A DNA stretch of 64,000 nucleotides from an uncultured archaeon (GTDB lineage: Archaea; Micrarchaeota; Micrarchaeia; Anstonellales; Bilamarchaeaceae), in the NCBI GenBank assembly GCA_963734525.1, contig CAVTHI010000008.1, positions 20,714 through 84,713 on the forward strand. The letters are read 5' to 3'. Shown in pieces: positions 5,025 through 20,347 of the stretch. A model generated the notes under the pieces. The model was not told the origin of the DNA, ran no database searches, and was given only the letters and a program-made list of their open reading frames with translations. The position numbers were made by a program, and so were the translations under genes. How positions within the stretch are numbered: position 1 is the first letter of the stretch; each line of letters opens with the position of its first letter.

Positions 5025-5259
5025 AATCCACTCCTGAAGCAGTTAATCTTGCACTTATGAAAACAGAGCCAAGAGCTTTAAATAATGTTACTCTACCTTT
5101 TTCTTCAAGATATAACATATTCGCAGCCAATTCTTATTCAGGTATTTTTAAGACGCTTATTAGGTCATCTCGCGTACTGTGAGCGTAGGGAGTCTTAAAA
5201 TAAATATCATATAGATGTTTCAGAATTTTCTTTCGAATTTCGTCCCGGTTCTTCTCCAT
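4999..5259 (-). pseudogene. winged-helix-like small regulator interrupted by an in-frame TAA
   Basis: My own translation of the minus strand gives MEKNRDEIRKKILKHLYDIYFKTPYAHSTRDDLISVLKIPE-TAA-ELAANMLYLEEKGRVTLFKALGSVFISARLTASGVDYVEENNLS-TGA. Both halves are below the 60-aa ORF-track cutoff. Read through, they form one 85-residue wHTH-like sequence. Confidence 0.45.
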
Positions 5260-5374
5260 CTTCTCAACCCACAAAATTGATATTTGCAAATCTTCTTAAT
5301 GCCCAGTGCTTTATTCGTTTTTTTTAGTATAATAGGTACATTGATACTATTCTCATCTCAGAGTATTGGCGATT

Positions 5375-7131
5375 TCATTCCACCGTGACTGATTTCGCCA
5401 GGTTCCTCGGCCTGTCCGGGTTGATGCCCCTAAGCACGCTCGCGTGGTATGCAAGGAGCTGCAGCGGCACGATGAGCGCGAACGGATAGAGGACGGGGTC
5501 GATGCCAGGCGGTAGCGGAATCGACAGGTCGCTTTCCTTCCTCGCCTCGTCGTCGTCGGTTATGCTCAGGATGAACGCGCCCCTCGCCTTGGCTTCCCGG
5601 ATATTGCCAAGGAGCTTCTGCAAGGTCTCGTCTTTCGGGGCGAGCGCCACCACCGGGACGCCCGGCACGATGAGGCTGAGCGTCCCGTGCTTCAGCTCTC
5701 CGCCGGGATACGCCTCCGAATGGATGTATGTTATCTCCTTGAATTTGAGCGAGCCTTCGTAAGCGATGGGGACGTTCCTCCCCCTCGCGATGAAGAACGC
5801 GTTCTCCTTCCCGGCTATTTTCTGGGCGATGGCCTTGATTTCATTGTCATGGCCGAGCATCGCTTCTATAAGGCCGGATACCGGTTTCAGCTTCTCTTTC
5901 CCGTAGAACATCTTGTAGATGACCGCGAGCTGGGCCGTGAACGTCTTTGTCGCCGCCACGCCCACCTCCGGGCCCGCATTCAGGAATACGACGCAGTCCG
6001 CGAGCGTGGTTATCGTGGAGCCGACGACGTTCGTAATCGCGATTTTCCTGCATCCTTTCCCGAAGCGCAGGGCCTGCAGGACGTCGGCTGTCTCCCCGCT
6101 CTGGCTGATTGCGATTATGAGGGTCTTCTTGTCCGGTTTCGCGATGAATGGGTAGTCGCTTGCGATGTAGGCCTGGGCCACCTTGCCCGAGTTCTGCAGG
6201 AGGTAGGACAGCATGATTCCGGCGTGGAAGGAGGTCCCGGCGGCGATGATATCGACGCGCCCGCATGATTCGATAAGCTTTCCGGCCTCTGAAACGTCGG
6301 ATGCGAGGCTCTCGTTGATGAAATGCTTCTGGTCCGCGATTTCTTTGAGCATGAAGTGGGGATACCCGCCCTTCTGGGCCATTTCCACGTCCCAGTCCAC
6401 GGATATCTGCTTCCGGGTCGCCTCGGACCCGTTGTGTTCGTATATCTTGTAGCCGCTCCTGCTTATGACGGCGATGTCGCCTTCCTGGAGCGGGATGAAC
6501 GTGCGGGTGTATTTCAGCATCGCCGGGATGTCCGAGGCACAGAGCATCTCCCCCTTTCCCGCACCTATGACGAGCGGGCTGTTGCGCCGTGCCATGAATA
6601 GGCGCTCTTCGGTGTCCGAGGCGCTCATGGCGACGATGGCATACGAGCCTTCGAGCATGTTGACCGTGCGGATGAAGGCCTTGAGGAGGGGCTGCGTTTT
6701 GGCGTTCTCCTCGATAAGGTGGGCGATGACTTCGGAATCCGTCTGCGAGGCGAACTTATGGCCCTTGGATGCGAGCTCGTCCCGGAGCTTGGTGAAGTTC
6801 TCTATCACGCCGTTGTGCGCCAGCACTATCTTGCCCGAGCAGTCCGTGTGCGGATGCGCGTTCTCCCTGCATACGGCTCCGTGCGTTGCCCACCGGGTGT
6901 GGCCGATGCCGATGTTTCCGTCCATCGAGGTGAAACGGAGGGCGGCCGAAACCTCTTCCACCATGCCTTTGTCCTTGCGGATTTCAACCTCGGTGGGGGT
7001 CTGCAGGGTTGTCTGTACTTTACGCACCGCTATGCCTACCGAATCGTAGCCCCTGTATTCGAGCCTTTTCAGGCCGTCGGTTATGACCTGCGAAGCCCGC
7101 CAGGACCCACGTATCCTATTATCCCGCACAT
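5375..7131 (-). CDS. glmS: glutamine--fructose-6-phosphate aminotransferase (isomerizing), with an apparent 1-nt frameshift after codon 9
   Basis: 588-aa ORF with LKRLEYRGYDSVGIA, HTRWATHG, two SIS domains and a C-terminal ...NLAKSVTVE. The true N-terminus MCGIIGYVG is read from the ATG at 7131 in another frame. The frames meet at the CCC run at 7106-7108. Confidence 0.9.
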
Positions 7132-7164
7132 CAGTCATCAATACAATGGCAAGATAATAAAGGT

Positions 7165-8343
7165 TTATTTAATGAATTCGACTTTCGCGGTATCCCGGTC
7201 GTAGAGGGCGAGCGTTATCGTTTTCCCCATGCCGGACAAGTCGGCGACATCCTGCGAGCTCCGAAGGAGCCTCTCCCGCACGGCCCGAAGGGTTTCCACG
7301 TCCGTATCCAGTATCACGATATGCCTGTTGCCGTCCTTCTCCCCCACTCCCGGCACATGGCCGCTGTCCAGGAAGCCGGCGTATCTCAATGACCCGATGG
7401 CTGAGAGGGAAAGGGGCTGGCCGCTGGATGCCGCCCTGAAGTCCTCCGTCACGCAGAAAATCTCGTTCGGACTGGAATCGAATATCTGACGTGGGCCGTT
7501 CACCCGGCCAAGCCGGTAGGGGTCGTAGTATATTATCGCATGCGAATACTGGTTTTCAGGCGTTATCCCGTTCGACATGGAATACTCCCACGTCCTGATG
7601 GTGGCTGCCCTCAGTTCCTTGAAGATGTCGTCGGGCACGGCCTGTGTGATGGACAGCCATTCGAGGTCGAAACGGCCTTCCGTCCATCCGCTCCAGTTCT
7701 CGAACAGGGGGTGCACATCGTTGCCCAAGCCTGCCGAATCCAGGATTGCAGAGGCGTTGAGGGCCTGTGTCCTAGCATTCCATCTCGAGAGCATATCTGC
7801 GTCTTCTATGATGGCGACCCCGTGGGGAATGGAATCGATGATGTGGTCGATTTGCGGGTCCCTGGTCTTTTCGCCCTTGATATGGAATTCGTGCGCCGTC
7901 TTCTCCCCGCCGCAGCTCTTGTGAGTCGACACATAGCCCCTGCCGAACGGGTCCAGGACCTTGAAGACCCCCCCTTTCCTGACGACAGAGCCTGCGGTCC
8001 GCTCATGTATCACCGGGTGGCGGAGCAGGGTCATGAGATTGAAAAGCGCGGATCTTGCATCCACGCATTGCTTCACCCCTATCATGTACTCGCCGGGGGA
8101 CGGATGCAGAAGGGGGCCGAAAGATTCGGTGAATTCGGAGACGACCGAGACCACGCGCTCATTGCCGAGCAGCAGCGCCCTCTTGGACAGCTCGATGGGT
8201 ATGGGTTTCTTGTCCCTCATCGCCCCGTATACTGTTTCTATCATGGGCCGCTCCGCATGATTGCGGTAGAAATCGTGTTTCCGTTCATAGAACGTTCTAT
8301 TTGCCTCTGCCAGATAACGTATTTTCGGGCTCGTCATTTTCAT
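7165..8343 (-). CDS. two-domain beta-carbonic-anhydrase-like protein, paralog A
   Basis: 392 aa. The N-half carries LLLGNERVV, KQCVDAR (C-x-D-x-R) and THKSCGG (H-x-x-C-G). The C-half (HAIIYYDP...SSPNEIFCVTED...RHIVILDTD) repeats the pattern without the Cys ligands. It is clearly paralogous to 8521..9720. Confidence 0.6.
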   Translation of the reverse strand: MKMTSPKIRYLAEANRTFYERKHDFYRNHAERPMIETVYGAMRDKKPIPIELSKRALLLGNERVVSVVSEFTESFGPLLHPSPGEYMIGVKQCVDARSALFNLMTLLRHPVIHERTAGSVVRKGGVFKVLDPFGRGYVSTHKSCGGEKTAHEFHIKGEKTRDPQIDHIIDSIPHGVAIIEDADMLSRWNARTQALNASAILDSAGLGNDVHPLFENWSGWTEGRFDLEWLSITQAVPDDIFKELRAATIRTWEYSMSNGITPENQYSHAIIYYDPYRLGRVNGPRQIFDSSPNEIFCVTEDFRAASSGQPLSLSAIGSLRYAGFLDSGHVPGVGEKDGNRHIVILDTDVETLRAVRERLLRSSQDVADLSGMGKTITLALYDRDTAKVEFIK

Positions 8344-8483
8344 CTACCTGGAAGCCCCATAGCAAAGCCAAACCCAGTTGAGGCTGGGGCCGGTTTTGCT
8401 AGGGGGTTGTTTCCGTATTATATAGTGTTTAAAAGTGCTTATAATGGTATCGATTAAATACATATTGAAACTTATTTTGACAC

Positions 8484-8501
8484 AATATAATAATTAATAT
8501 A
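8484..8501 (+). promoter_or_regulatory. TATA-like box for 8521..9720 (divergent AT-rich promoter region 8410-8505)
   Basis: aatataataattaatata is centred about 28 nt upstream of the ATG at 8521. Further TATA-like elements (ttatatagtgtttaaaag) could serve the divergent gene. Confidence 0.4.
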
Positions 8502-8520
8502 CCGGCCGTGGAATCACATC

Positions 8521-9720
8521 ATGGCAAACAGACTTCCACAGGGGATGCGGCATGTTGCGGCGCTCCACCACGAGGAGCATGTGCGGAGGCACGCCATATT
8601 CAAGAGCTACCATGCCGAGGACCAGCATAAGCGGATACATGAGATGATACGGGAACGGAAGATGCTGGACCCTATAGAATCTGCGTACGCCCTCCAGGAG
8701 GGGAACAAGGGGCATGCGGCCCGCGTGTCCGGCTTCCAGGGGGAATTGCCGGAAAAGATAAAGACGCTCATGCTGGTATGCGCCGATGCGCGCATGGGGG
8801 GGATGTTCGATTTCGATGATTTCGCGAGGCGCGGCATCGCCGCGGTGTATGTGGCCGGCAATGTGTCCGACTTCCTGAACACATCCGGGGTGAAGGAGGT
8901 CTTCAGGCGAATGGACAAGGATTCCTCGATAGTCATCGCCGGCCACGCCAAATGCGGCGCCGTCCATTGCGCATCGGAGAAGGAGCAATACTCCCACCTC
9001 AAGAACATCGCCGTCCTCCTCCACCTGGTCTCGCCGACCGGGGAGCTCGACAACCTGCGGGCGCAGGCCGGGACGCTCGCCGCGAACGAAGCCTTCCAGA
9101 AGCTCACCGCCAGGAAGAACGTGCGAATCGTCAGCGCTTTCGTCGATATCGCGCACCATGAGCCCCAGATACGCCTGGTGGACGGCGACAAGGCGCAGGA
9201 GCAGGATAGGGAGCTCATCGACAGGCTTGACCGGGCCTTCCGGCGTTCGAACGGAGGCATGGACCTGTCTTCGCACCAGTTCGCGCATGCCGTAGTGATA
9301 TCCGGGCCGGCGCTCCCGTTCGACGCGCGTGAGATATTCTCCGCGGGCTCGAACGAGATATTCTGCGTGACCGGCGGGGATTATGGGGGGAAGAAGCACA
9401 AGGGCCACCTGTCCGAGGCCGAGATTGCCACGGTGGAGATGGCGTCGCTGGGGATGCTCGACGAGCAGTCGGTGGCGTCAATCGAGTATTCGGTCGAGAA
9501 GAACAAATCCCAGCATATCCTCCTGCTCCATACAGACCTCGCGGTCATCGATGCATGGGAAGCGCAGTTGATAAGGAAAAGCGACATCGTCTCGAACGCC
9601 CTCATCGAAGGCAGGCTCGAGATAACGACCGCCGTGTACGATTCGAGCACCGGCCGGGTGACGATGGTGCGCCACCTGGTGAACGAGGACGCCGCGGCCG
9701 CGATTTCCTCGAAGGTTTGA
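8521..9720 (+). CDS. two-domain beta-carbonic-anhydrase-like protein, paralog B (closest to canonical beta-CA)
   Basis: 399 aa. The N-half has LQEGNKGHA, LMLVCADARMGG (C-x-D-x-R), AAVYVAGNVSD (xAGN) and SIVIAGHAKCGAVHCA (G-H-x-x-C-G-A), in the order and spacing of beta-class CAs such as archaeal Cab. The C-half (HAVVISGPALPFDAREIF..SNEIFCVTGG..HILLLHTD..TTAVYDSSTGRV) is a degenerate second copy. Confidence 0.7.
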   Translation: MANRLPQGMRHVAALHHEEHVRRHAIFKSYHAEDQHKRIHEMIRERKMLDPIESAYALQEGNKGHAARVSGFQGELPEKIKTLMLVCADARMGGMFDFDDFARRGIAAVYVAGNVSDFLNTSGVKEVFRRMDKDSSIVIAGHAKCGAVHCASEKEQYSHLKNIAVLLHLVSPTGELDNLRAQAGTLAANEAFQKLTARKNVRIVSAFVDIAHHEPQIRLVDGDKAQEQDRELIDRLDRAFRRSNGGMDLSSHQFAHAVVISGPALPFDAREIFSAGSNEIFCVTGGDYGGKKHKGHLSEAEIATVEMASLGMLDEQSVASIEYSVEKNKSQHILLLHTDLAVIDAWEAQLIRKSDIVSNALIEGRLEITTAVYDSSTGRVTMVRHLVNEDAAAAISSKV

Positions 9721-9767
9721 CGGGCGGCCCTTTCCAGCCGCACCCCCGAACAGGGTTTCCCAGCCCA

Positions 9768-10598
9768 TCAATCCAGCAGCGCCAGGACAGACGGCTCCCT
9801 TATGCGCCTGTTGAGCACGGATTTGTGGTCTTTCGGGAAATCCTTTATCGACTGGTGTATCATCTTCCTGAGGTCTGGCTCGACAGTGGAGACATACGAG
9901 TTGATGCCTTCCGCTTCGACTTCGGGAACGGTCAGGACGTGCAAATGGACGCCCAGGTGCTGCATGATTGTGCTCATGATAGGGTCGTTCTTGACCTTCC
10001 TCCGGATGTTATTGGCTTCGAGGACGTCCTTGCCGAGAAGGTAATAGTCGCGGAGGCCGAGGGTGACTATCGAATAGCATATGCCCCCCAGCTTATAGGG
10101 CCCGAAACTGCTGAACGGATTAAGCACGTTGGAGCCCGTCGCCAGGAACACGCTGCCCGCGACGTCGTAGTCGCTGGACTCCTTCAGGTTGAGGTATCGG
10201 ATTAGCGTTTCCCTCGGGTTGGCGATGTCCGGCGCGCATATAAGGCCGCAAACCGGCTTCTGGATGCTGCTCCGGCGAATCCTTTCGGGGTGGTTCTCCG
10301 GAAGGTGGTCCATGACGTAGCGCATGAGGCCCGCCATGTCGTCCAGTATCGTGTGGACGTGGAGGTTGTCGTCGATGCGTATCTTCAGGCCGGTCCGGTA
10401 ATTGAGGACGCCGCAGTTGACATGCACCGGAATCCGCTCCAGCTCGTTGTCGGCGTCCAGCGCCGTCCTCAGGTACTTCTTGGATTTCAGCGGCTCCTTG
10501 ACCGTGTCTATGCTGGTGAGGAAATCCTCGGCGCTCGTGCCCTCGTGGGCATAGACGTTTTTCAATAGGAGATAGAGGTCATCGTCGTTATCCAGCAT
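9768..10598 (-). CDS. beta-CA-like degenerate (C-terminal-type) domain protein, paralog C part 2
   Basis: 276 aa. VCGLICAPDIANPRETL...VAGSVFLATGSNV...GGICYSIVTLGLRDYYLLGKD parallels the C-halves of paralogs A and B. Its start overlaps the stop of 10588..11133 by 11 nt next to an A-rich run, so the two may be one gene. Confidence 0.5.
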   Translation of the reverse strand: MLDNDDDLYLLLKNVYAHEGTSAEDFLTSIDTVKEPLKSKKYLRTALDADNELERIPVHVNCGVLNYRTGLKIRIDDNLHVHTILDDMAGLMRYVMDHLPENHPERIRRSSIQKPVCGLICAPDIANPRETLIRYLNLKESSDYDVAGSVFLATGSNVLNPFSSFGPYKLGGICYSIVTLGLRDYYLLGKDVLEANNIRRKVKNDPIMSTIMQHLGVHLHVLTVPEVEAEGINSYVSTVEPDLRKMIHQSIKDFPKDHKSVLNRRIREPSVLALLD

Positions 10599-11133
10599 GA
10601 TTGTCTTTTCTTTCTTTGCGGCTTTTATCGAAGAAGGAGATTTCCGGCTTTATGTTGTAGAGCAGGCCCCGGATGGTTTTCCAGGCCTCGTTGGAATGGC
10701 TCATGCCGCAGTTGATGGCCGAGTCTGGGTTGATCATCTCCACCTCGGTTTCGGGATTGTACACGAGCTTGTTGACATCCGGCACCTTTATGTCCGCATG
10801 GCCGGAAATCTGGACGACCGTCTTGTGCAGGACGCCCGGACCCTGGTCCACCCTCACTTTTTCCCCGAATTCGCTCAGGCTGGAGTTGAGTCCGCCCTTG
10901 ATGATGTCCTTGATTTCGATATAGGATTGCTTGTTCACGACCGAGCCGGCGATGGTCACCCGGGAAATGAGCACCTTTACCCCGCGGGCGGCGTATTCCA
11001 GGATGAGGCTCCGCAAAATCTGATTTTCCACCGCACCCCCGTCGCGCGCGTCTGCGCAGCGGACCTGGATGACGTGCTGCACCTCGTCAACCGGATAGTT
11101 GACATTGAATGATAGCGTTGCTCTGGTTCCCAT
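10588..11133 (-). CDS. beta-CA-like N-terminal-type domain protein, paralog C part 1
   Basis: 181 aa with VIQVRCADARDGG (C-x-D-x-R), VVQISGHAD and a distal AINCGMSH. It is the first gene downstream of the NuoB-like gene on the same strand. Confidence 0.5.
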   Translation of the reverse strand: MGTRATLSFNVNYPVDEVQHVIQVRCADARDGGAVENQILRSLILEYAARGVKVLISRVTIAGSVVNKQSYIEIKDIIKGGLNSSLSEFGEKVRVDQGPGVLHKTVVQISGHADIKVPDVNKLVYNPETEVEMINPDSAINCGMSHSNEAWKTIRGLLYNIKPEISFFDKSRKERKDNHAG

Positions 11134-11241
11134 ATGTACTCAGTCCGGGTACATCCGGCCCAATCCCATGCGGGATGGCGGCCGTCTCGGCTATGGCTGC
11201 TGCCATTCCGAACCCCCCGGAAAATAGTTGGTTGCTATGGA

Positions 11242-11820
11242 TTATATGGATTTCGGTTTTGCGTTTTTTGGCGGACTGCGGGTTTCTTCGCCCTTCCGCT
11301 TCTTGTCGATGGCCATGCCGGCTTTCAGTATCCCCGCGAGGAGCTCGTATGGGTCCGGCGGGTTGCCCGGGACTTTCACGTCAACCGGGACGACGCTCTC
11401 GACGCGCCCGTCCCCGGCCAGGGCGTAGCTCCCCTTGAACGGCCAGCCCGTGCATGCCCCGTCCCCTGCGGCGACGACGGCGCGGGGTTCGGCCATGGCT
11501 TCGTAGCTTTTAATCAGCGCGACTTTCATGTTCTGGGTGACCGGCCCGGTGACTATGAGGACGTCCGCGTGCCTCGGGGAGGCTACAAAGTGCACGCCGA
11601 AGCGCTCCGCATCGACGCGGGGGGCCATCATGAGCTGCTCCTCGAGCTCCACGTCGTTCGGCGAGCCGGCATCCACCATGCGCACGTGGATGGAGCGCGA
11701 GAACAGCGACATAGGCCGCTGCCTGAGCAGGAGCGCGACCTCGCGCACCGCAGGGTCGGGCGATTTCTCCGACACGCGGTCCGGGAAATATTCGAATGCG
11801 AGCTTCAGTGTTTCAAGCAT
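11242..11820 (-). CDS. NuoB/HycG/HyfI-like small subunit lacking the [4Fe-4S] ligands
   Basis: 192 aa. ERFGVHFVASPRHADVLIVTGPVTQNM...VPVDVKVPGNPPDP is unmistakably the NuoB/group-4 small-subunit fold. The Cys-ligand positions read DAGSPND, GDGACTGW and PGNPPDP, so 3 of 4 Cys are lost. Confidence 0.85.
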   Translation of the reverse strand: MLETLKLAFEYFPDRVSEKSPDPAVREVALLLRQRPMSLFSRSIHVRMVDAGSPNDVELEEQLMMAPRVDAERFGVHFVASPRHADVLIVTGPVTQNMKVALIKSYEAMAEPRAVVAAGDGACTGWPFKGSYALAGDGRVESVVPVDVKVPGNPPDPYELLAGILKAGMAIDKKRKGEETRSPPKNAKPKSI

Positions 11821-11829
11821 ATCAATCCC

Positions 11830-13407
11830 TCACAGGTCTGTTCCGGCATACGACATATTGAAACTCTTGTTTATCAGCGGGAAATCCGGCACGATGTCGC
11901 CGGGGACGAGGTTCTCGGCGCCGCGCCAGTTCTTGAACGACGCGGTCCTGCATGCGAGCCGCTCGATTTTGCCGTCATCGGAGAGCTCGACGAGGAACGC
12001 ACAGCCCCCGCGCGGAGCCTCGGCCCAGCCGACCCCGGTTCGCACGGATTCCTCGCTATCGGCCACCGCAGGTTCGCACTGCAGCTTGCCTGATGGCATG
12101 TGGGACGCGAGCCAGTTCACCAGCCGGACGGATTCCTTGACCTCCGCGAGTTTCACGAGGAATCTCGCGAGGACGTCGCCGGTCTTTTCCGTCGATTCCC
12201 TGAAGCCCGCATCCGCATAGGCCGAATAGGGAAGCGATTTGCGCAAATCGCAGCTAACCCCGCATGCGCGGGCGACAGGGCCCACGAGCGCGAGGTCTGC
12301 CGCTGCCTTCTGGGGGACGGCGCCGGTCGAGAAAACGCGGTTGAGGTATGTCGATGACTCGAGCGTGAAGCGCTCCACGCGCGCAAGCCGCTTCTCGAAA
12401 TCCGCCAGCGTGGAAGCGATTAAGGCCAGCTTCTCTTTCGGAAGGTCGCCGCTGACGCCGCCAACGACGCACATACCGCGGAGGAATCGGCTCCCCGTGA
12501 CTTTCCGGTTGAGCCTCATCATGTCCTCGCGGAGGACTGCGAACCTTGATGCGGACATCGTGAAGCCGACATCGGTCGGCATGCCGCCGAGGTCCGAGAG
12601 GTGGCTGTATATGCGCTCGAGCTCCAAGAGGATTGCGCGTATGTATTCGGCGCGCTCCGGGACCTTGAGGCCGCAGGCGCGCTCGACCGCATGGCAGTAG
12701 GCGACCCCGTTCGCGACGGACTCGTCCCCGGAAATCTGCTCAATCACGGGCAGTATTTCTACGGCGGCCTTGCCTTCGACGCTTTTCTCGACCCCCCGGT
12801 GCAGGTAGAACATGCGGGTTTCCAGCTTGTTTATCTGCTCGCCCACGATATGGAACCTGAAGTGCCCCGGCTCTATTATGCCGGCGTGCACCGGGCCGAC
12901 CGCCAGCTCGAATTCCCCTTCGGCCCCGGTGCCCTTTATCACGTAATCATCGTTCTTCTGCCGGACCAAGGCCTTGCCGCCGACCGGATGCTTGTCAGGC
13001 ATGCCGCTTTCAGGGTGGAAGATGAGCGGCCTGGAATCGGGTATCCCGGAGAGTCTCAGGCCGGTTAGGTCCTGCATCTTGCGCTCGTCCCATAACGCGG
13101 CGTTCACCGTCGCAGATAGCGCGGCGAACTCCTTCCCCTTGGCCCGGAGTATGAGCATCCGGCCTATCGCAGGGACGCGGAACAGGTAGGAGACCTCGAA
13201 TGCGCCCCCGGGGCGGGACGAGATGAAGCCTGAATCGAAAATCGCCCCGTTCGCCATGCTAGCCTTGCAGGCGGGGACGAGGTCGCTCTGGCGGAGGGAC
13301 GCCCAGATGCAGGCGCCGCGCTCGCTCCATGCCTCGATGGCCCCCTGCTTGAGTGATTTTTGGATTATTCCGGAGAATTTTTTCGTTTCGTCAGTCATAT
13401 CATCCAC
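11830..13407 (-). CDS. NuoC-NuoD fusion / HycE-HyfG-like large subunit lacking NiFe-binding cysteines
   Basis: 525 aa. GPVHAGIIEPGHFRF, FYLHRGVEK and EAPRG are family motifs. The N-terminal RxCGxC position reads IEQISGDESVANG. The C-terminal DPCxxCxx(H/R) position reads KSFNMSYAGTDL-stop. Confidence 0.85.
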   Translation of the reverse strand: MDDMTDETKKFSGIIQKSLKQGAIEAWSERGACIWASLRQSDLVPACKASMANGAIFDSGFISSRPGGAFEVSYLFRVPAIGRMLILRAKGKEFAALSATVNAALWDERKMQDLTGLRLSGIPDSRPLIFHPESGMPDKHPVGGKALVRQKNDDYVIKGTGAEGEFELAVGPVHAGIIEPGHFRFHIVGEQINKLETRMFYLHRGVEKSVEGKAAVEILPVIEQISGDESVANGVAYCHAVERACGLKVPERAEYIRAILLELERIYSHLSDLGGMPTDVGFTMSASRFAVLREDMMRLNRKVTGSRFLRGMCVVGGVSGDLPKEKLALIASTLADFEKRLARVERFTLESSTYLNRVFSTGAVPQKAAADLALVGPVARACGVSCDLRKSLPYSAYADAGFRESTEKTGDVLARFLVKLAEVKESVRLVNWLASHMPSGKLQCEPAVADSEESVRTGVGWAEAPRGGCAFLVELSDDGKIERLACRTASFKNWRGAENLVPGDIVPDFPLINKSFNMSYAGTDL

Positions 13408-14866
13408 CGATTACTTCCTCGACCACCATCGAGATGAGCCGGATGAGCGGTTCGGGCGGCGTCAGGCCGAAATAGACCGCGAGCAGCAAAAGCGCCAGGA
13501 ACGGCACGACCATCAACAGGGATGGTTTGAATTTTTCGACCCCTTCGGGAATTTTGCCGAAGCACATGCCGGAAGCGCGGTAAAGCAGGCTCGCGAATGT
13601 GATCGTCGTGCAGATTATGAACAGGAGGGCGACCAGGTACTGGCCCCCGGAAAGCGAAGCCGCGAGGACTCCCACCTCCGAGATGAACGTGCCGAAAGGC
13701 GGGCTGCCGGAAATCCCGACCGCGATGAAAACGAAGGGGATTGCGACCACCGGGACCACTTGGGCGGCGCCGCTGATGAGCCGTATCTCCTTGGTCTTGA
13801 ACGCCAGCGCTATCACGCCGCTTGAGAGGAAGGCGAGGGGCTTGGCGAGGGAATGGGACACCATGTGGAAGAGCGCGGCGAACATGCCTATCGGCCCCCC
13901 GAGGCCGAACGCGAGGACGACTATCCCCATGTTCTCGACGCTGGAATAGGCCAGCATGCGCTTGAGGTTGTCCTGGTAGAAGAGGCGCAACGCGCCCACG
14001 GCAAGCGAGAGCATGCCGAACACGATGAGCAGGCTGGACGCGAAAGACACGAGCTCAGGGTACGGGGCCAATATCTGGTAGGCCCTCACAATCCCGTGGA
14101 ACGCGATGTTCAGCAGGACGCCGGATAGCAGGGCGCTGACAGGCGTCGGGGCCTGGCTGTGCGCGTCCGGAAGCCACACGTGCAAAGGCACGAGGCCTAC
14201 CTTCGTACCGAACCCGACGAGTATGAATGCGAAGGCGATTTTCATGAAGAACAGGTTCACGCCGGTATGCGGGGCGAGGAGGCTCGGCCAGTCCCCCCAT
14301 GATGCCGAGTCCGGCGGAAGGACCGCGTACATGAGGAACATGATGCCTACGAGCGCGAGCAGGATGCCCACCGAGTTTATTATGAAGAACTTCCAGGCCG
14401 CCTCAATCGAGCTGGTCGTGTTATAGAAGCTGATGAGGAAGACGGACGCCAGCGTCGTGGCTTCAATCGCCGCCCACATCACGACGATATTCGAGGCGAG
14501 GGGGGCCACAAGCATCGCCGCGAGGAAAAACGAGAGCAGGCCGTAATATGTCCCCAGCCGGCTTTCGTCCACGGTCTTTTCCTCGACCTCGTGCCTGAGG
14601 TAGCCGATGGAATAGATGAATACGAAAAACGACACCAGGGCGGTCAGGGAAGTGAAAAGCGCGGAGATGGAATCGAGGTAGAGGAGGCCGTAGGACTCGA
14701 CGTACGGCACCGGCGCCTGGATGAAGCCCCATGTCACGAAGAGCGCGAAGAATGCTGCGAGCGAAGCGCCTGCCACCGCGGCCAGTTCCGCGGCCCTGGG
14801 GTGCTTGGACAGCAGGAACGCAAGGATTCCGGAAATGATCGGCGGCAGGATTATGAGTTCAAGCAT
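13400..14866 (-). CDS. antiporter-like subunit (NuoN/HyfF/MrpD family)
   Basis: 488 aa, polytopic, with AAIEATTLAS, GFGTKVGLVPLHVWLPDAHSQAPTPVSALLSG and HMVSHSLAKPLAFL. Confidence 0.85.
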   Translation of the reverse strand: MLELIILPPIISGILAFLLSKHPRAAELAAVAGASLAAFFALFVTWGFIQAPVPYVESYGLLYLDSISALFTSLTALVSFFVFIYSIGYLRHEVEEKTVDESRLGTYYGLLSFFLAAMLVAPLASNIVVMWAAIEATTLASVFLISFYNTTSSIEAAWKFFIINSVGILLALVGIMFLMYAVLPPDSASWGDWPSLLAPHTGVNLFFMKIAFAFILVGFGTKVGLVPLHVWLPDAHSQAPTPVSALLSGVLLNIAFHGIVRAYQILAPYPELVSFASSLLIVFGMLSLAVGALRLFYQDNLKRMLAYSSVENMGIVVLAFGLGGPIGMFAALFHMVSHSLAKPLAFLSSGVIALAFKTKEIRLISGAAQVVPVVAIPFVFIAVGISGSPPFGTFISEVGVLAASLSGGQYLVALLFIICTTITFASLLYRASGMCFGKIPEGVEKFKPSLLMVVPFLALLLLAVYFGLTPPEPLIRLISMVVEEVIGG

Positions 14867-14870
14867 GGGT

Positions 14871-15557
14871 TCACCTTTTCTCTATGAGTTCATCGAGTTC
14901 TTTCGTATCGAGGGTGCCGACCGTGCCGCGTATCTTGAGCGCCAGGAGCATGGCGACTATTATCAGGATCACCACGTCGAAAAGGGCGACCGCGTCGCTT
15001 ACGAAGGGCAGCTGTATCGGAAGGGCTATCGGAAGCAGGACCACGCCGTTCTCCATGAGGAGGAATCCGAGGAGCTGGAGCAGGAGGTTCGTCTTGACCG
15101 CGATTATGAGCATGCCTATCAGGATGAGCGACAGCACGAGCGGCAGCATGATGGTGGTCCCGCCGAGTATCGACGAGAGCAGGAACGCGAGGACGATGAG
15201 TATGCCGGAGTATGCCAGGATGCGCGCCGGGGTGACGTAGGAGCCGGTGAAGAGCGGGTCGAAGTCGAGGTTAAGCCTCAGGTCCTCCTTCGTCGCACGG
15301 AACACGTTGTAGAAGCGCGTGGGCAGCAGCTTCACTTCGCCGGGCATCACCCTGAACAGGTTGAAGAGCATGACCGGGATGAGCAGGAATTTCAGGATGA
15401 AGGTCGTGCCCACGCGGAAATACAGGTCCGGGGCGCCTTCACCCAGGGCGGACACGGCGAAGATGATGACGAGGCATGCGCTCTGTATCATGTAAAGCTC
15501 GACGCTGCGGTTGAATGTCGCGCTGAAGACGAAATACAGGGAGCTCAGCAGCATCAC
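14871..15557 (-). CDS. HyfE-like small polytopic membrane subunit
   Basis: 228 aa, about 7 TM. Its position between the NuoH-like and NuoN-like genes matches E. coli hyfE. Start is GTG 15557 or ATG 15554. Confidence 0.6.
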   Translation of the reverse strand: MMLLSSLYFVFSATFNRSVELYMIQSACLVIIFAVSALGEGAPDLYFRVGTTFILKFLLIPVMLFNLFRVMPGEVKLLPTRFYNVFRATKEDLRLNLDFDPLFTGSYVTPARILAYSGILIVLAFLLSSILGGTTIMLPLVLSLILIGMLIIAVKTNLLLQLLGFLLMENGVVLLPIALPIQLPFVSDAVALFDVVILIIVAMLLALKIRGTVGTLDTKELDELIEKR

Positions 15558-15574
15558 GAATACGAGCGCCGTTT

Positions 15575-16534
15575 CTATGGGCGACTCCGCCGGCCCCGGT
15601 GCCGGACAGCGTCGTGAGGAACGAGAGCAGTGCGAGGAGCATCGCGAGCATCAGGAGCTCGCCGACCTTGAACAGGCGCACCTTCACGCTGATGCTCTCC
15701 ACGACCGCGGTGAGCATCGCGAGGAGAAGCGAGACGCCGAGCACGAACACCGAGCGCATGATTGGGTCCGGCAGACGAGAGCGGCAGGAATATTATCGGG
15801 ATGAGCGCGAATAGGAGGAAAATCTTCGACGCATGGGCCCATTCGACGAAGGCGAGGCCGGGCCCGGAGTTCTCGAGTATCATCGCTTCGTGGACCATGG
15901 TGAGCTCGAGGTGCGTGGCCGGGTTGTCGAACGGAAGGCGTCCGGTTTCCGCCAGGATGATGATGAACAGGCCGAGCGCCGCTATCCAGTGCGCGGGCGA
16001 CAGCGCAAGCGCATCCCATGCGATGCCGCCTGATGCCAGCGGGGCGATGACGTTGAAGCCGCCCGATGCCGCCAGGAAGAGCACGACCGCGAAAAGAGCG
16101 GGCTCGATGAGCACGGAATAGAGCATCTCCCTGCTCGAACCCAGCCCGCCGAACGAGCTTCCCGCGTCAAGCCCGGAAAGCGCCGTGAGGAAGCGCCCGA
16201 TGGAGAAAAGGTATGCGAATACGATGATGTTCACCGCGAGGAATGAGACCGGCGAGAGGACGGGCAGCATGACGGACGCTATCGCGACCGAAACGAATCC
16301 GGCTACCGGGGCGATGACGAAGATGAACGACGTGGTGGAGCTCTTGGATTCGCCCTTTGAAAGGAGCTTGGCCAAATCCAGGTAAGGCTGGATTATGGGG
16401 CTGCCGGACCTCCCCTGCAGGCGGGCCTTCACCTTGCGCATGAGCCCGACGATGAGCGGGGAGAAGCCGAAGATGAAGATTATCTGGAGGAATGCCAGGA
16501 GAGCGGGTGTGGTGTCAGCAGCCATAAGGATCAC
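15575..16534 (-). CDS. NuoH/HyfC/HycD-like membrane subunit, apparently frameshifted near 15765-15790
   Basis: The N-terminal 255 aa are convincing (RKVKARLQGRSGSPIIQPYLDLAKLL, ETGRLPFDNPATHLELTMVHEAMILENSG). After ...IPIIFLPLSSAGP the sense continues in the frame of ORF 15439..15759 (IMRSVFVLGVSLLLAMLTAVVESISVKVRLFKVGELL...). The true 3' end is uncertain. Confidence 0.75.
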   Translation of the reverse strand: MILMAADTTPALLAFLQIIFIFGFSPLIVGLMRKVKARLQGRSGSPIIQPYLDLAKLLSKGESKSSTTSFIFVIAPVAGFVSVAIASVMLPVLSPVSFLAVNIIVFAYLFSIGRFLTALSGLDAGSSFGGLGSSREMLYSVLIEPALFAVVLFLAASGGFNVIAPLASGGIAWDALALSPAHWIAALGLFIIILAETGRLPFDNPATHLELTMVHEAMILENSGPGLAFVEWAHASKIFLLFALIPIIFLPLSSAGPNHALGVRARRLASPRDAHRGRGEHQREGAPVQGRRAPDARDAPRTALVPHDAVRHRGRRSRP

Positions 16535-18513
16535 AGCAGGGCATATATCAGTACTAATCCCAGCGTCACCATCAGGTAAACCAGGTAATCGCTTAGTTTT
16601 CCGGTCTGGAAAAATCTGGAGTAGGGCGCGAGCGCCTGGTACACGAGGGATATCGGCGTATATATCGTATAGTTGAACAGCTTGGACCCGTAAGCCGCCG
16701 GCTTTGACAGCGGGTCAAGCCAGACGTTGAGGCTCCGGGTTACCGGCATGGCGAATCCCGCCGCAGAATACTGCATGCGCGAAGTCACCGGGATGAAGCC
16801 GCAGGCCCATGTGTCGCCGGATTCCTGGCGCCTGCCCCTGCCGGAGAGCCAGGCCACCCCTCCGAGAAGGACCGAGCCAAGCACGAGCGCGAGCAGGATG
16901 GTGGACGTCTGGAGCCCCTCGGATGCGGCCACCAGCTGGAAGCTGGATGCTGCGGTGAAGCCGAAGGAATCGAAAATGCCGAGCGTTGCCTGCGCGATGA
17001 CCGCCGGGAATGCGCCTGCGGCGATGCATGCCAGCCCGAGAAGCGCCATCCCGGCCAGCATCGACGCGGGGGCCTCCTTCGCCTTCAGGGCATGAGGGCT
17101 CCGCGGAAGGCCGAGAAACGGGATTCCGAACGCCTTTACGAACGCCCCGACCGCGAGCGCGCTGGTGAGGGCGAGGAAAAGGACGGCCAATGAGAGGATG
17201 AGGGAAACCGGCGCCGGGATGCTTACGCCCCCGAGCAGGGCCTCGAATGTGAGAAGCTCGCTCACAAAGCCGTTCAGCGGGGGGATTGCGGCGATGGATG
17301 CGGAACCAAGGAGGAACAGCACGGCGGTGACGGGCATGAGTTTTGCCAGCCCGCCGAGCTCTTCGATGTTCCGCTCGTGCGTCGAATACGCTATGCTCCC
17401 TGCGCCAAGGAAAAGGAGGCTCTTGAACAGGGCGTGGTTGAGCGTGTGGTAGAGGCAAGCGAAAAGGGCGAGGGCGGCCAGCTCAGGAAGCTTCAGGGAC
17501 GCGAAAATCACCGCGGCCCCGAGGCCGATGAAGATTATCCCGATGTTCTCGATGCTGTGCATGGCGAGCAGGCGCTTCATGTCGTGCTCCAGCAGGGAGT
17601 AAAGGACCCCGAGCACGGACGAGAACATTCCGAGGACGAGGATTGCGACGCCCCACCACATCTCGTTCCCGGTGCCCACGATTCCCAGGAATCCGAAGAG
17701 GACGCGCACGAGGCCGTATATGGCGGTCTTGAGCATGACGCCGGACATGAGCGCCGATACGTTGCTCGGAGCCTGCGGGTGCGCGAGGGGGAGCCAGATG
17801 TGGAGCGGTATGATGCCGCATTTAGAGCCGAACCCCACCAGGGCGAGAACGAAGACCGCGTCCAGAAGGAGCGGGGCGTACGAAGCCTGCGGGAAGGAGC
17901 TGAAATCCGCCGACCCGGAGCCGCTCGCAAGTATGAGGAACATCAGTATGAGCGCGACGGCGCCCACGTGGGTGATGACGAGGTAATTGAAGCCGGCGGA
18001 TTTGACGCCCTCCTCCTTGTGCTCGAAGGTGACAAGGAAGAACGAGCTCAGGGCCATGGCTTCCCAGAGGACCAGGAATAGCACGGCATTCTGCGCGGCG
18101 ACGACGAGAATCATGGAGAGCAGGAAGATGTTGTACAGGAATGCGAAGCGGCTCAGGCTGTAGCCCTTTTCCCGGTATTCGTCGGCATAGGAAATCGAGT
18201 ATATGGAAACCGCGGCCCCGACGAATGCGATGATGGATACGAAAAGGCCGGAGAGCGCGTCGATGCTGAATGAAAGCGAGCCGAGCTGCCCGAGCTCGGC
18301 GAGGGTGAAGGCCTGCGTGCCTGCGCCGAGGAAGGATGCTATGCCGGCCGCAAGGGCTGTTATGCTCCCCGCCAGAGCGAGGCCGAACCCCAGGATTGAG
18401 CTTATGCGGGGGTTCCGCGCGGAAAGGAGGGGCAGGAATGCGCCTGCGAGGAAGAAAAGCGACGAGACAATTAGTGCGGGCTGACCTAAAATATTCATAT
18501 CGAGGGGAGTCAT
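16531..18513 (-). CDS. antiporter-like subunit (NuoL/HyfB/HycC family)
   Basis: 660 aa with LWEAMALSSFFLV, GSKCGIIPLHIWLPLAHPQAPSNVSALMSGVMLK and HTLNHALFKSLLFLGAGS. It is the first gene of the operon. Confidence 0.9.
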   Translation of the reverse strand: MTPLDMNILGQPALIVSSLFFLAGAFLPLLSARNPRISSILGFGLALAGSITALAAGIASFLGAGTQAFTLAELGQLGSLSFSIDALSGLFVSIIAFVGAAVSIYSISYADEYREKGYSLSRFAFLYNIFLLSMILVVAAQNAVLFLVLWEAMALSSFFLVTFEHKEEGVKSAGFNYLVITHVGAVALILMFLILASGSGSADFSSFPQASYAPLLLDAVFVLALVGFGSKCGIIPLHIWLPLAHPQAPSNVSALMSGVMLKTAIYGLVRVLFGFLGIVGTGNEMWWGVAILVLGMFSSVLGVLYSLLEHDMKRLLAMHSIENIGIIFIGLGAAVIFASLKLPELAALALFACLYHTLNHALFKSLLFLGAGSIAYSTHERNIEELGGLAKLMPVTAVLFLLGSASIAAIPPLNGFVSELLTFEALLGGVSIPAPVSLILSLAVLFLALTSALAVGAFVKAFGIPFLGLPRSPHALKAKEAPASMLAGMALLGLACIAAGAFPAVIAQATLGIFDSFGFTAASSFQLVAASEGLQTSTILLALVLGSVLLGGVAWLSGRGRRQESGDTWACGFIPVTSRMQYSAAGFAMPVTRSLNVWLDPLSKPAAYGSKLFNYTIYTPISLVYQALAPYSRFFQTGKLSDYLVYLMVTLGLVLIYALL

Positions 18514-18645
18514 TCTTTGACCTTCTGGGAGTTGATGACTGATTATTGTTTATTTCAAGAATACATTTAAAAAGATTAGCAGGGGTCGGTCGCCCGGCGG
18601 CGAATTCCACTCCCGCGTCCCCGCAGTTCTGCGCCAGCGTTTCAG

Positions 18646-18658
18646 TTTATTTTTAAAT
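18646..18658 (+). promoter_or_regulatory. TATA-like box for purE
   Basis: tttatttttaaat is centred 28 nt upstream of the ATG at 18680. A second box (catttaaaaag, 18564-18574) faces the minus-strand hyf-like operon. Confidence 0.45.
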
Positions 18659-18679
18659 CATTCATGATGAGATGATACC

Positions 18680-19117
18680 ATGGAGAAAGTGCTCATTTTG
18701 GCCGGAAGCAAAAGCGACGAGGATGTGGCAAGGCAGGCCATGGACGTCCTTGCGGCGTTCAGCGTCCCGTACCGCTTTGAAATCGCGTCGGCCCACAGGA
18801 ATCCCGAGAAGGTCGACAGGCTGGTCAGGGAAACGACAGCGCAGGTCTTCATCGCCATCGCGGGGATGAGCGCCGCGCTCCCGGGCGTGGTCGCCGCGAG
18901 GACCACTAAACCGGTCATCGGGGTGCCCGTCAACGCGTCGCTCGACGGCCTGGACGCACTCATGTCGGTGGCCCAGATGCCGCCGAACGTGCCTGTCGCG
19001 GCGGTCGGAATCGGGATGGGCAAGAACGCCGCGCTCCTGGCGGTGCAGATGCTCGCCCTCGGCGATGCGGCGCTTGCGGCGAGGCTCGCCGAATTCAAGG
19101 AAAAACTCAAGCAGTGA
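18680..19117 (+). CDS. purE: N5-carboxyaminoimidazole ribonucleotide mutase (PurE)
   Basis: 145 aa with ILAGSKSD, ASAHRNP, IAGMSAALPGVVAARTTKPVIGVPV and LMSVAQMPPNVPVAAVGIG. Confidence 0.9.
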   Translation: MEKVLILAGSKSDEDVARQAMDVLAAFSVPYRFEIASAHRNPEKVDRLVRETTAQVFIAIAGMSAALPGVVAARTTKPVIGVPVNASLDGLDALMSVAQMPPNVPVAAVGIGMGKNAALLAVQMLALGDAALAARLAEFKEKLKQ

Positions 19118-19120
19118 ACA

Positions 19121-20347
19121 GTGAAGCGAATGGCAGACTCCGAACAGACTTACCAGCTGAAGAAGACGCTGAAGAAGCTCGAGGGATACCGCGGCAGCGG
19201 GACCGAGCTGATTTCGGTCTACATACCGGCGGGCTCGCCCATACACGAGATGGGCAACAAGCTCCGCGAGGAGATGAGCCAGGCGAGCAACATCAAGTCG
19301 AAATCCACGAAGCTTAACGTGCTCGGTGCGCTCGAGCGCATTATGAACCACTTCAAGATTTACAAGAAGCCCCCGGCGAACGGCATCGCGGTGTTCGCGG
19401 GGAACGTCTCGGACAACCCGGCGAAGGTGGACATCGAGCTTTTCGCCATCGAGCCCCCGGAAAAGCTCAACATCGGGGCGTACCGGTGCGACAGCAGGTT
19501 CTTCCTCGAGCCGCTCCAGTCCATGCTCGGCTCGACCGATTCCTACGGCATCGTGGTCCTGGACGGGCGCGAGGCGACGGTGGCGATGGTCAAGGGGACC
19601 AACATCACGATAATAAAGAAGCTGAACTCGACGGCGCATGCCAAAATCAGGAAGGGGGGCCAGAGCGCCCGCAGGTACGAGCGCCTCATCGAGGAGGCGA
19701 TAGAGGTATATTACAAGAGGGTCGGCGACTCGATGGACAACGCCTTCCTGAGGAACGAGAAGAGCATCGTCAAGGGCGTCATCGTGGGCGGACCCGGGCC
19801 GACGAAGGAGTTCTTCATGAAGATGAGCCCGTTCAACTACCAGCTGAAGGTCCTGGGCGTCGTCGACACCGGCTACACCGAGGAATACGGCATCCGCGAG
19901 GTGCTTTCCAAAAGCGAGGACATACTGTCCCAGCAGGAGGCCGTGAAGGAGAAAATACTCGTGGACAGGTTCATCAAGTCCGTGGTCAACGAAGGGCTCG
20001 CCACATACGGCGAGAAGGAGGTGCGCGAGGCTATACTGTCGCACCAGGCCGACAAGGTCATGCTGTCCGAAGGCCTCGCGCACACGAGCGTTCTGTACAA
20101 ATGCCCGTCCTGCGGCACCGAGGCGAGGAAGGCCTTCCGGGACAAGCCGGAGGACTCGATGCCGTGCCCGAAATGCAATTCGTCGATGAAGGAGCAGTCC
20201 AGGGAGCTCCTTATCGACGAATTGAACGAGCTTGCTCGGCAGAACGAGATTCCGGTGGAGATTATCTCGACGAACACCGTGGAGGGCAACCAGTTCCTCA
20301 CCGGCTTCGGCGGAATCGGCGCGTTCCTCAGGTACAAGACGAGGTAG
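19121..20347 (+). CDS. prf1: peptide chain release factor aRF1
   Basis: 408 aa with the NIKSKSTK motif, GGQSARRYERL (GGQ) and a C-terminal Zn-ribbon-like CPSCG...CPKC. Confidence 0.95.
   Translation: MKRMADSEQTYQLKKTLKKLEGYRGSGTELISVYIPAGSPIHEMGNKLREEMSQASNIKSKSTKLNVLGALERIMNHFKIYKKPPANGIAVFAGNVSDNPAKVDIELFAIEPPEKLNIGAYRCDSRFFLEPLQSMLGSTDSYGIVVLDGREATVAMVKGTNITIIKKLNSTAHAKIRKGGQSARRYERLIEEAIEVYYKRVGDSMDNAFLRNEKSIVKGVIVGGPGPTKEFFMKMSPFNYQLKVLGVVDTGYTEEYGIREVLSKSEDILSQQEAVKEKILVDRFIKSVVNEGLATYGEKEVREAILSHQADKVMLSEGLAHTSVLYKCPSCGTEARKAFRDKPEDSMPCPKCNSSMKEQSRELLIDELNELARQNEIPVEIISTNTVEGNQFLTGFGGIGAFLRYKTR

Follow-up and report, generated by a model that had tools for sequence, protein, structure and literature searches.

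A cofactor-less hydrogenase-related complex flanked by β-carbonic anhydrase-like genes in Micrarchaeota: a candidate module for inorganic carbon and ion translocation

Genes at the locus

We analysed a stretch of 64 000 nucleotides of contig CAVTHI010000008.1, called the window below, which belongs to a Candidatus Micrarchaeota (DPANN) genome and carries a hyf-like operon with three carbonic anhydrase (CA)-like genes beside it. The genome is that of a tiny symbiotic archaeon, and the close relatives of the locus are all metagenome-assembled genomes of Candidatus Micrarchaeota or Micrarchaeia. An earlier note on this DNA had described the locus as a degenerate group 4 hydrogenase scaffold adjoining a split pair of CA-like genes. 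Here, we compare it with related loci, which are designated by L numbers.

The hyf-like operon (11242-18513, − strand) consists of six co-directional and tightly packed open reading frames (ORFs), HyfB, HyfC, HyfE, HyfF, HyfG, and HyfI. HyfB (16531-18513, −) is a NuoL-like antiporter-type membrane subunit of 660 aa, with matches to Pfam Proton_antipo_M (3.4e-47) and NCBIfam hydrogenase-4 subunit B (1.5e-185). HyfC (NuoH-like) and HyfE (NuoK/HyfE-like) belong to a single fusion gene (14871-16534, −), which is seen in the window as two ORFs (15575-16534 and 14871-15557), and which encodes 549-552 aa in L001, L006, and L019. The NuoH-like part matches Pfam NADHdh at 1.2e-33, and the HyfE-like part gives matches below the cut-off to Oxidored_q2 (1.4e-4) and to NCBIfam hydrogenase 4 membrane subunit (1.6e-16). 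HyfF (13400-14866, −) is a NuoM/N-like antiporter-type membrane subunit of 488 aa (Proton_antipo_M, 6.5e-52; NCBIfam hydrogenase-4 subunit F, 1.5e-120). The last two genes encode a NuoC-D-like large subunit of 525 aa (HyfG, 11830-13407, −; Pfam Complex1_49kDa, 1.1e-44) and a NuoB-like small subunit of 192 aa (HyfI, 11242-11820, −; Pfam Oxidored_q6, 2.9e-20).

The CA-like pair lies downstream of HyfI on the same strand, after a 108-nt gap (11134-11241), exactly as the earlier note had it. However, the pair is not a designed split. The ORFs of 181 aa (10588-11133) and 276 aa (9768-10598), which overlap, are parts of a single 454-aa gene, X454 (9768-11133, −), which has been broken by a 1-nt insertion and is intact in L006, L007, and L012. 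Two more CA-like paralogs had been placed within 3 kb, and both are indeed present within 2.6 kb, as an A-type two-domain β-CA of 399 aa (8521-9720) and its B-type paralog of 392 aa (7165-8343, −). The 399-aa gene is on the + strand, however, so that the three CA-like genes of the window do not form a single transcription unit. A superfamily hidden Markov model (HMM) run over all 64 kb of the window finds these three CA-like genes only, all directly beside the operon. Their products are cytoplasmic, two-domain (pseudo-dimeric) β-CA-like proteins of different subfamilies, E (X454), A, and B.

A hydrogenase-related complex without cofactors

The best PDB match of the HyfG-like protein is HycE (7z0s_E, E = 1.5e-60). 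In the alignment with HycE, CGICGF is replaced by ISGDES and DPCYSC by NMSYAG, so that none of the four NiFe cysteines is left, and ISGDES and NMSYAG are also present in four aligned Micrarchaeota HyfG orthologs. The NuoB-like protein was aligned with MbhJ (3.3e-24) and HycG, and here GSPNDV takes the place of GSCNGC and GNPP that of GCPP. Cys1, Cys2, and Cys4 of the FeS site are replaced, and Cys3 is out of register; at least three of the four ligands are therefore lost. No ferredoxin-type subunit (HyfA/HyfH/NuoI) is encoded at the operon.

The membrane subunits have fared differently. The HyfB-like protein, with HycC as its best PDB match (7z0s_C, 5e-73), retains the Glu of transmembrane helix (TM) 5, the Lys of TM7, the Lys of TM8, the H..K pair of TM11, and the Glu of TM12. 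The HyfF-like protein, aligned to MbhH (6cfw_H), retains the TM5 Glu, the TM7 Lys/His, the TM11 H..K, and the TM12 Glu. Thus, the claim of a degenerate group 4 hydrogenase scaffold is borne out by the loss of all four NiFe cysteines and at least three of the four FeS cysteines. The further claim that the redox function is gone while the ion channels are kept also holds at the residue level, as the ligands are lost from HyfG and HyfI and the charged residues are retained in HyfB and HyfF.

Complexes of this type have been described as energy-converting hydrogenase-related (Ehr) complexes. Ehr complexes, which are without the NiFe ligands, occur widely among bacteria and archaea and are regarded as standing between group 4 hydrogenases and complex I; they are treated in PMC6349859 and PMC10432482 as having no known function. 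The local operon shares the defining features of Ehr complexes, namely, homology to the NuoD- and NuoB-type subunits, no NiFe CxxC motifs, and an NADHdh protein together with two Proton_antipo_M proteins. The features of a group 4 [NiFe]-hydrogenase of the Hyf/FHL (formate hydrogenlyase) type are absent, since none of the four NiFe cysteines remains and the FeS site has lost three or all four of its cysteines. Because the degenerate scaffold matches the published description of Ehr complexes, it belongs to a known category and is not new.

The ratio of nonsynonymous to synonymous substitution (dN/dS) was obtained for the pair L006 and L012, for which dS is about 0.85-1.2 for all genes. The values are 0.059 for X454, 0.069 for HyfI, 0.15 for HyfF, 0.155 for the 399-aa CA, 0.19 for HyfB, 0.20 for GlmS, 0.21 for the 392-aa CA, and 0.23 for HyfG. 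By this measure, constraint in the neighbourhood is strongest on X454 and the cofactor-less NuoB-like HyfI. The locus, then, encodes an Ehr-type complex that lacks both the NiFe site and the proximal FeS cluster, has kept the charges of the antiporter-like pathways, and is under purifying selection. The Ehr scaffold is functional in the clade. We rejected recent horizontal transfer as the cause of the 91% identity of X454 between L006 and L012, because the dS of 0.85 for this gene resembles that of the neighbouring genes.

Frameshifts in the window

The window was compared with the contig L006, which is 93% identical and, apart from one segment of about 1.1 kb, colinear. Relative to L006, the window has one extra base in X454 near 10623, which gives rise to the 181-aa and 276-aa ORFs, and two 1-nt insertions in HyfC-E near 15773 and 15584, which divide that gene into two ORFs and account for the Arg-rich tail of the 319-aa NuoH-like ORF. 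The remaining single-base indels lie in spacers between genes or, where they fall inside a gene, are made good within a few bases. GlmS, the 392-aa and 399-aa CA genes, HyfB, HyfF, HyfG, HyfI, PurE, and aRF1 are all intact.

The three coding insertions reflect either mis-assembly or recent inactivation of the module in this genome. If they are real, the module would be a decaying remnant here and the system would be nonfunctional in this genome. In support of this possibility, all three of the uncompensated 1-nt insertions fall in two genes of the same module while the neighbours are intact, and the other indels, being intergenic or compensated, have the pattern expected of real divergence under selection. 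However, one of the three insertions, and only one, is in a homopolymer run, the rest of HyfC-E and X454, at 93% identity, has no stops and no larger lesions, and the orthologs are intact and under strong purifying selection in L006, L007, L012, L001, and L019. Three events are too few to distinguish assembly errors from recent inactivation. On balance, we consider it unlikely that the module is decaying in this genome.

The CA-like proteins

The 399-aa protein matches Pfam Pro_CA with 46.3 bits against a cut-off of 25.7 (E = 6.9e-12). Its zinc motifs are CADAR at 87 and HAKC at 142, and C87, D89, R91, H142, and C145 are invariant in 16 homologs. The family is small, with 15 clusters at 90% identity and proteins of about 400 aa, and those members with a named source are all from Micrarchaeota. 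An AlphaFold model of the protein (predicted local distance difference test, pLDDT, 82; predicted template modelling score, pTM, 0.87) has an N-terminal helical segment followed by two α/β domains. All 33 of the PDB matches found with this model by Foldseek at E ≤ 1e-3 are β-CAs. The top match is 1ddz_A, the tandem β-CA of Porphyridium (3e-10), and 8thm_C, a carboxysomal β-CA from Cyanobium (7e-5), which we take to be CsoSCA, is also among the best; ordinary β-CAs match the model across one domain only. The second β-CA-like domain is degenerate. From the fold matches and the motifs, the 399-aa protein is predicted to be a pseudo-dimeric β-CA with one zinc site.

The 392-aa protein has no Pfam match of its own, even at E = 10, and no NCBIfam match. 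It is similar to the 399-aa protein over its full length by BLASTP (2e-15) and aligns with the 399 family in hhalign at 99%, and its zinc motifs are CVDAR at 93 and HKSC at 141. Judged by these motifs, the A and B types keep the canonical β-CA zinc site.

X454 is far more diverged. An exhaustive HMMER search with the 276-aa part gave a family of 64 representatives at 50% identity, mostly of 380-470 aa; the named members are from DPANN archaea, with one from Marsarchaeota, and every annotation is 'hypothetical'. The 181-aa fragment, by contrast, found only itself in a homolog search, and its exact look-up returned no contig; scanning metagenomes with the X454 alignment brought up no contig other than L006. 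In the family alignment, C26, D28, and R30 (in CSDARD) are near-invariant, and H114 and the C144-G-M motif are invariant (family numbering); the corresponding residues of X454 itself are C26, D28, and R30 (CADAR at 26), H112, and C142. The family thus holds the five residues that define the β-CA zinc site. The canonical combination of CxDxR and HxxC is seen only in part, as CADAR is present and the His and Cys are about 28 residues apart.

The comparison of full-length profiles shows that the X454 family and the 399 family are colinear over both domains (hhalign 53%, E = 1.4e-4). With the separate parts, the similarity of the 181-aa ORF to the CA family is confined to the region around CADAR (hhalign 58%), and the 276-aa ORF shows no similarity to it in BLASTP or hhalign, so that the full-length family profile is needed to bring out the link for this part. 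For X454 there is no Pfam match even at E = 10 and no NCBIfam match, and none of 46 family members matched Pro_CA in a Pfam scan, which gave only noise. An AlphaFold2 model of the L012 ortholog (pLDDT 88) has 1ddz_A, the tandem β-CA, as its top Foldseek match, but the match is weak (E = 1.7e-3, probability 0.77, TM-score 0.27). No DabA structure is among the matches of this model, although the DAB structures may post-date the PDB copy used. The CA-likeness ascribed earlier to the split pair is therefore supported by the family motif, the colinear profile, and a weak fold match, while the relationship is remote and lacks a Pfam match. These comparisons and the model indicate that X454 is probably a highly derived member of the β-CA-like superfamily and not a demonstrated CA. 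The family also duplicates locally, as a Micrarchaeota contig (L022, 294-3184) carries a tandem pair of X454-family paralogs of 464 and 457 aa.

A further subfamily, the C type, is found in relatives of the locus (L001, 8748-9938; L011, 6650-7858 and 7950-9149; L015, 3207-4514; L019, 1-957). In these proteins, the order of the motifs is permuted, with GH(x5)PCGA near residue 100 and CxDxR in the second half, at residues 260-310, and consequently neither domain has a complete canonical site. The two halves of the pseudo-dimer could together form one site, the sequence could be circularly permuted, or the enzyme could be dead. In L015_346, both zinc-site motifs are lost.

Are the proteins beside the operon then CAs in function? 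They, and especially the X454/E and C types, might instead be structural or regulatory subunits that replace the lost electron-input module, comparable to the γ-CA domain of plant complex I, or they might act in COS, CS2, or cyanate-type chemistry. β-CA homologues with CS2 and COS hydrolase activity are known. The missing Pfam match and noncanonical His-(~28 aa)-Cys spacing of X454, the permuted C-type motifs, and the loss of both motifs in L015_346 would agree with such roles, as would the dN/dS of X454, which fits a protein with many interaction surfaces. Nevertheless, the A and B types have a complete canonical β-CA site and the A type passes the Pfam threshold, while the X454 family keeps exactly the five zinc-site residues, and an extended His...Cys spacing compatible with CO2 hydration is seen in DabA. 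We therefore regard a non-CA function as quite improbable.

Conservation of the gene neighbourhood

A profile scan of genomes with the HyfG-like alignment gave six Micrarchaeota loci, whose HyfG-like proteins are 56-72% identical to that of the window, and L019 was added by a context look-up. Together, there are seven independent Micrarchaeota lineages with the operon: the window with L006 and L007; L012; L001 with L002 and L014; L011; L015; L019; and L016. CA-like neighbours were scored by BLAST and the superfamily HMM. A Thermoplasmata match, L017, was rejected as a relative of the module, as it has 32% identity, a different gene order, and no CA-like gene.

CA-like superfamily genes directly flank the operon in six of the seven lineages, with two to three members in each, the exception being L016. 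The earlier note had staked its proposal on synteny of this kind, which is thus found in most of the relatives. The X454 (E), A, and B types stand beside the operon in the window, L006, and L007, and L012 has the same layout. In L001, L002, and L014, there are C and A types, with the A type convergent on HyfI. L011 has two C-type genes on the same strand, starting 188 nt after HyfI. In L015, a C-type gene lies upstream, divergent from HyfB, and two D-type genes lie downstream on the same strand, 75 nt after HyfI. L019 has an X454-type (E) gene upstream, divergent from HyfB; downstream, HyfI is followed at 33 nt by an A/B-like gene of the same orientation, and a C-type gene is also present on this side. 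In L016, which has no CA-like gene, GlmS comes directly after HyfI. The A-type protein beside the operon in the closest relatives is 97% (L006/7) and 71% (L001/2) identical to that of the window.

The linkage persists through strand inversions, the swap of one paralog subfamily for another, and the loss of other flanking genes, and the guanine plus cytosine (GC) content of the hyf loci with CA-like genes ranges from 35 to 62%. In L015 and L019, aRF1, PurE, and GlmS are not found beside the operon, yet the CA-like genes are still there. Since the CA-like genes persist despite these changes in neighbours and GC content, the pattern exceeds what inherited gene order would give and argues for a functional link. 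The Ehr and CA-like neighbourhood thus recurs in most of the Micrarchaeota lineages that carry the operon.

CA-like genes also occur near other transporters. One case is L021, a Micrarchaeota contig of 7 kb on which no hyf genes are seen, where an X454-type gene is followed directly by a convergent Na_H_Exchanger gene and this in turn by a B-like CA gene (3292-7231). In the relatives L009 (3215-5979) and L010 (3242-6006), whose A-type CA is 62% identical, the stop of the CA gene and the start of an ATP-dependent phosphoenolpyruvate carboxykinase (PEPCK) gene overlap by 4 nt; within about 5 kb there are also two Na_H_Exchanger genes and one Na_Ca_ex gene. These gene contexts suggest that the CA-like proteins are associated more widely with cation/proton transporters.

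Proposed function and mechanism

The explanation that we find best, and put forward tentatively, is that the Ehr complex and the CA-like cluster would form one functional module, which links the interconversion of CO2 and HCO3− with the translocation of H+ or Na+. With regard to mechanism and ALTERNATIVES, the statement of a functional module is the best supported one that we make.

What would the main alternative look like? The CA-like proteins could be ordinary soluble, cytoplasmic β-CAs, which supply CO2 or HCO3− to carboxylation and decarboxylation reactions or buffer the pH, and which are co-located with the operon without being coupled to it. The Ehr complex would then be a separate, Mrp-like cation/proton antiporter, and the adjacency would come from inherited gene order or shared regulation. 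This is a real possibility, although we think it falls clearly short of being probable.

A number of observations weigh against a coupled module, and several of them agree with soluble enzymes. The A type is unlinked to hyf in five lineages, L023 (67%), L008 (65%), L009/10 (62%), L003 (46%), and L004/5 (43%), and its overlap with PEPCK in L009/10 is a classic metabolic pairing, which looks like the role of an ordinary soluble CA. X454-type genes are unlinked in L020, and also in L021 and L022 as far as the short contigs show. L016 has the operon with no CA-like gene by either BLAST or the superfamily HMM. The 25 CA-like proteins have a maximal 19-residue Kyte-Doolittle hydropathy of at most 1.62, and the top segments are motifs of the β-strand core; none of the 25 thus has a membrane-inserting segment or anchor by this crude test, which an amphipathic element could escape. 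The strands are mixed, as the 399-aa gene is opposite to the operon in the window and the A-type gene of L001 is convergent to it, and the spacers between HyfI and the CA-like genes, at 33-188 nt, are larger than those within the operon, which are about 0-50 nt and mostly less than 10 nt or overlapping. The gene directly after HyfI is not always of one CA-like subfamily, which is unusual for an obligate subunit. The order is partly inherited, since aRF1, PurE, and GlmS are partly conserved near the operon in the window, L006, L012, L001, and L016; furthermore, the synteny has all been seen in a single phylum, so that part of it may reflect ancestral order, and it is uncertain how many independent events it represents. 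In addition, two genes of the module, HyfC-E and X454, are frameshifted in the window itself, and the assignment of X454 to the β-CAs is moderately supported by the hhalign and Foldseek scores given above.

On the other hand, soluble enzymes do not readily explain why the adjacency is kept in L015, L019, and L011 despite changed neighbours and a GC content of 35-44%. Different paralog subfamilies stand right after HyfI, which points to selection for some CA-like gene at this position, and two to three paralogs per locus would be excessive for a housekeeping CA in a reduced genome. Furthermore, no other gene of the neighbourhood is as constrained as X454 and the cofactor-less HyfI.

If the functional module is taken as the working explanation, two versions of it can be considered. 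In the tight version, which is that of the earlier note and the specific mechanism that we favour, although it is speculative and we regard it as rather doubtful, a docked β-CA-like subunit would be gated by ion flow, giving a vectorial CA on a cofactor-less Ehr scaffold. Ion flow through the membrane arm formed by HyfB, HyfF, and HyfC-E would cause conformational changes at the junction of the cofactor-less NuoB-, NuoCD-, and NuoH-like parts. These changes would gate the docked CA-like subunit, such that CO2 is irreversibly hydrated to cytoplasmic HCO3−. The docking partner may be one or more of the X454/E, C, and A/B types, and the docking site may be the NuoB/NuoCD/NuoH-like junction or an antiporter-like subunit. 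The result would be an inorganic-carbon trap like those of DAB and Cup, supplying the needs for bicarbonate or CO2, for example, of PEPCK and PurE. Docking and the vectorial mechanism, like co-transcription, interaction, and activity, stand here as a hypothesis drawn from gene order and motifs.

In the looser version, the CA would feed or buffer protons for an Ehr cation/proton antiporter without tight docking. This version is suggested by the recurrence of CA-like genes near Na+/H+ exchangers in L021 and L009/10. Such a CA-antiporter 'metabolon' fits the data about equally well, and we consider it about as likely as the tight version.

Comparison with known systems

Each subunit of the operon has its best sequence match in the Hyf and Hyc complexes of Escherichia coli (HycE, 1.5e-60; HycC, 5e-73; NCBIfam HyfB and HyfF), and the gene order is hyf-like. 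However, the catalytic and electron-transfer ligands are gone, and HyfA, HyfD, HyfH, HyfJ, formate dehydrogenase (FDH), and the maturation genes are absent from the operon. With Ehr complexes the operon shares HyfG/NuoD- and HyfI/NuoB-like subunits that lack the NiFe cysteines, a NuoH-like subunit, and antiporter-like subunits of the Mrp/NuoL type. The local complex differs in that the small subunit is also without its FeS cluster, in the fusion of HyfC with HyfE, and in having no gene for a ferredoxin-like or FDH-like partner nearby. The candidate partner here is a β-CA-like cluster, whereas an oxidoreductase has been proposed for the FDH-Ehr of Margulisbacteria.

A precedent for a CA coupled to such subunits is DAB (also MpsAB). 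DabA consists of an N-terminal helical domain and two β-CA-like domains, and in fold it is nearest to CsoSCA. Its His...Cys spacing is extended and its partner is NuoL-like; a membrane-inserting helix-loop-helix contacts this partner, and the long His...Cys loop is the coupling element (PMC13144422; bioRxiv 10.64898/2026.05.01.722082). The structures of DAB1 and DAB2 show proton-driven gating of a buried β-CA site, with unidirectional CO2 hydration (same sources). The local proteins resemble DabA in their helical N-terminal part, two β-CA-like domains, and CsoSCA-like fold, and NuoL-type membrane subunits are present, here as gene neighbours only. The extended His...Cys spacing is shared by X454, but this is an analogy and not evidence. 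The differences are substantial. The local proteins are of 390-460 aa, compared with more than 800 aa for DabA, and have no membrane-inserting finger helices; in place of a single DabB there is a whole five-gene Ehr scaffold with NuoB-, NuoCD-, and NuoH-like parts, and there are several CA-like paralogs per locus. In Pfam scans, neither the three local CA-like proteins nor the X454-family members match the DabA family (DUF2309).

NDH-1MS and NDH-1MS', in which CupA or CupB sits on NdhD3/F3 or NdhD4/F4, are similar in concept, as a complex-I-type machine carries a CO2-hydrating module on its membrane arm. NDH-1 retains its FeS clusters and redox drive, and the Cup proteins are not known to be β-CA homologues. 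Pfam scans of the local proteins gave no match to the Cup/Chp family (CupA/CupB, ChpY/ChpX).

CsoSCA, the β-CA of α-carboxysomes, and the tandem β-CA of Porphyridium purpureum are the closest relatives in fold. For the 399-aa protein, the prediction is a pseudo-dimer within one chain, with a helical N-terminus and a zinc site in the first domain only. It differs from them in having only about 10% sequence identity and no carboxysome context, and in belonging to a small archaeal family.

Ehr complexes, two-domain β-CAs, and CA-coupled complex-I-type modules are thus each already known singly. A literature search found no paper that links Ehr or hydrogenase-related complexes with CA, and the passage on Ehr in one review draws no such link; a search on DPANN or Micrarchaeota together with CA found nothing. 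The combination of an Ehr scaffold with a flanking, lineage-specific radiation of β-CA-like proteins in DPANN archaea therefore appears to be undescribed in the literature searched. Comparative genomics makes it credible that the Ehr and β-CA-like module is real, and it is apparently unreported.

If the tight version is correct, Micrarchaeota would have built a vectorial CA independently on a complete Ehr scaffold. An Ehr complex would then have a function assigned to it for the first time, archaea would have their first system of this kind, and Cup and DAB would be joined by a third independent union of a CA module with complex-I-type ion machinery. With a consistent non-redox partner, there would be a first functional hypothesis for an Ehr complex that can be put to the test, and one would see what use a complex-I-type machine has after the loss of redox chemistry. 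The coupling of a second, unrelated scaffold to β-CA-like proteins would show how general the gating principle of DAB is. There are also β-CA-like families that profile libraries miss, such as X454/E, for which, with 64 representatives at 50% identity, there is no Pfam model, and the C type with its permuted motifs. These matter for the annotation of inorganic-carbon metabolism in DPANN archaea, which keep two to three such genes in spite of their small genomes.

Other features of the window

The 108-nt spacer between HyfI and X454 (11134-11241, −) is GC-rich, with predicted stem-loops (minimum free energy −41.3 kcal/mol, z = −1.8), and may be a structured element. It is conserved in L006 (9625-9740) and L012 (12160-12271), with two compensatory pairs among three sequences only. 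An Rfam search of 7000-19200 of the window gave no match, and no obvious AT-rich TATA-like box is present in the spacer close to the ATG of X454. The element could act as a leader or a terminator, or be a site of processing.

Beyond the 392-aa gene lies GlmS (5375-7141), and PurE and aRF1 are located beyond HyfB, on the other side of the operon from the CA-like genes. The PurE gene (AIR carboxylase family, Pfam 1.2e-51; 18680-19117, +) is divergent from HyfB in the window, L006, and L012, and is not adjacent to the operon in L015 or L019. PurE catalyses a CO2/bicarbonate-dependent step in purine synthesis.

A segment of about 1.1 kb next to GlmS (4233-5373) has a GC content of about 44%, compared with 59% for the window, and is missing from the colinear, 93%-identical L006. 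It contains three small ORFs of 91, 95, and 65 aa on the − strand, without a significant Pfam match, and is possibly a small insertion or mobile remnant. Finally, two adjacent large ORFs of 248 and 700 aa (20452-23273, −) have no meaningful Pfam match. The 700-aa ORF is rich in Asn, Ser, and Thr, has hydrophobic stretches, and is possibly a surface or membrane protein; in L001, the homologous positions hold unannotated genes.

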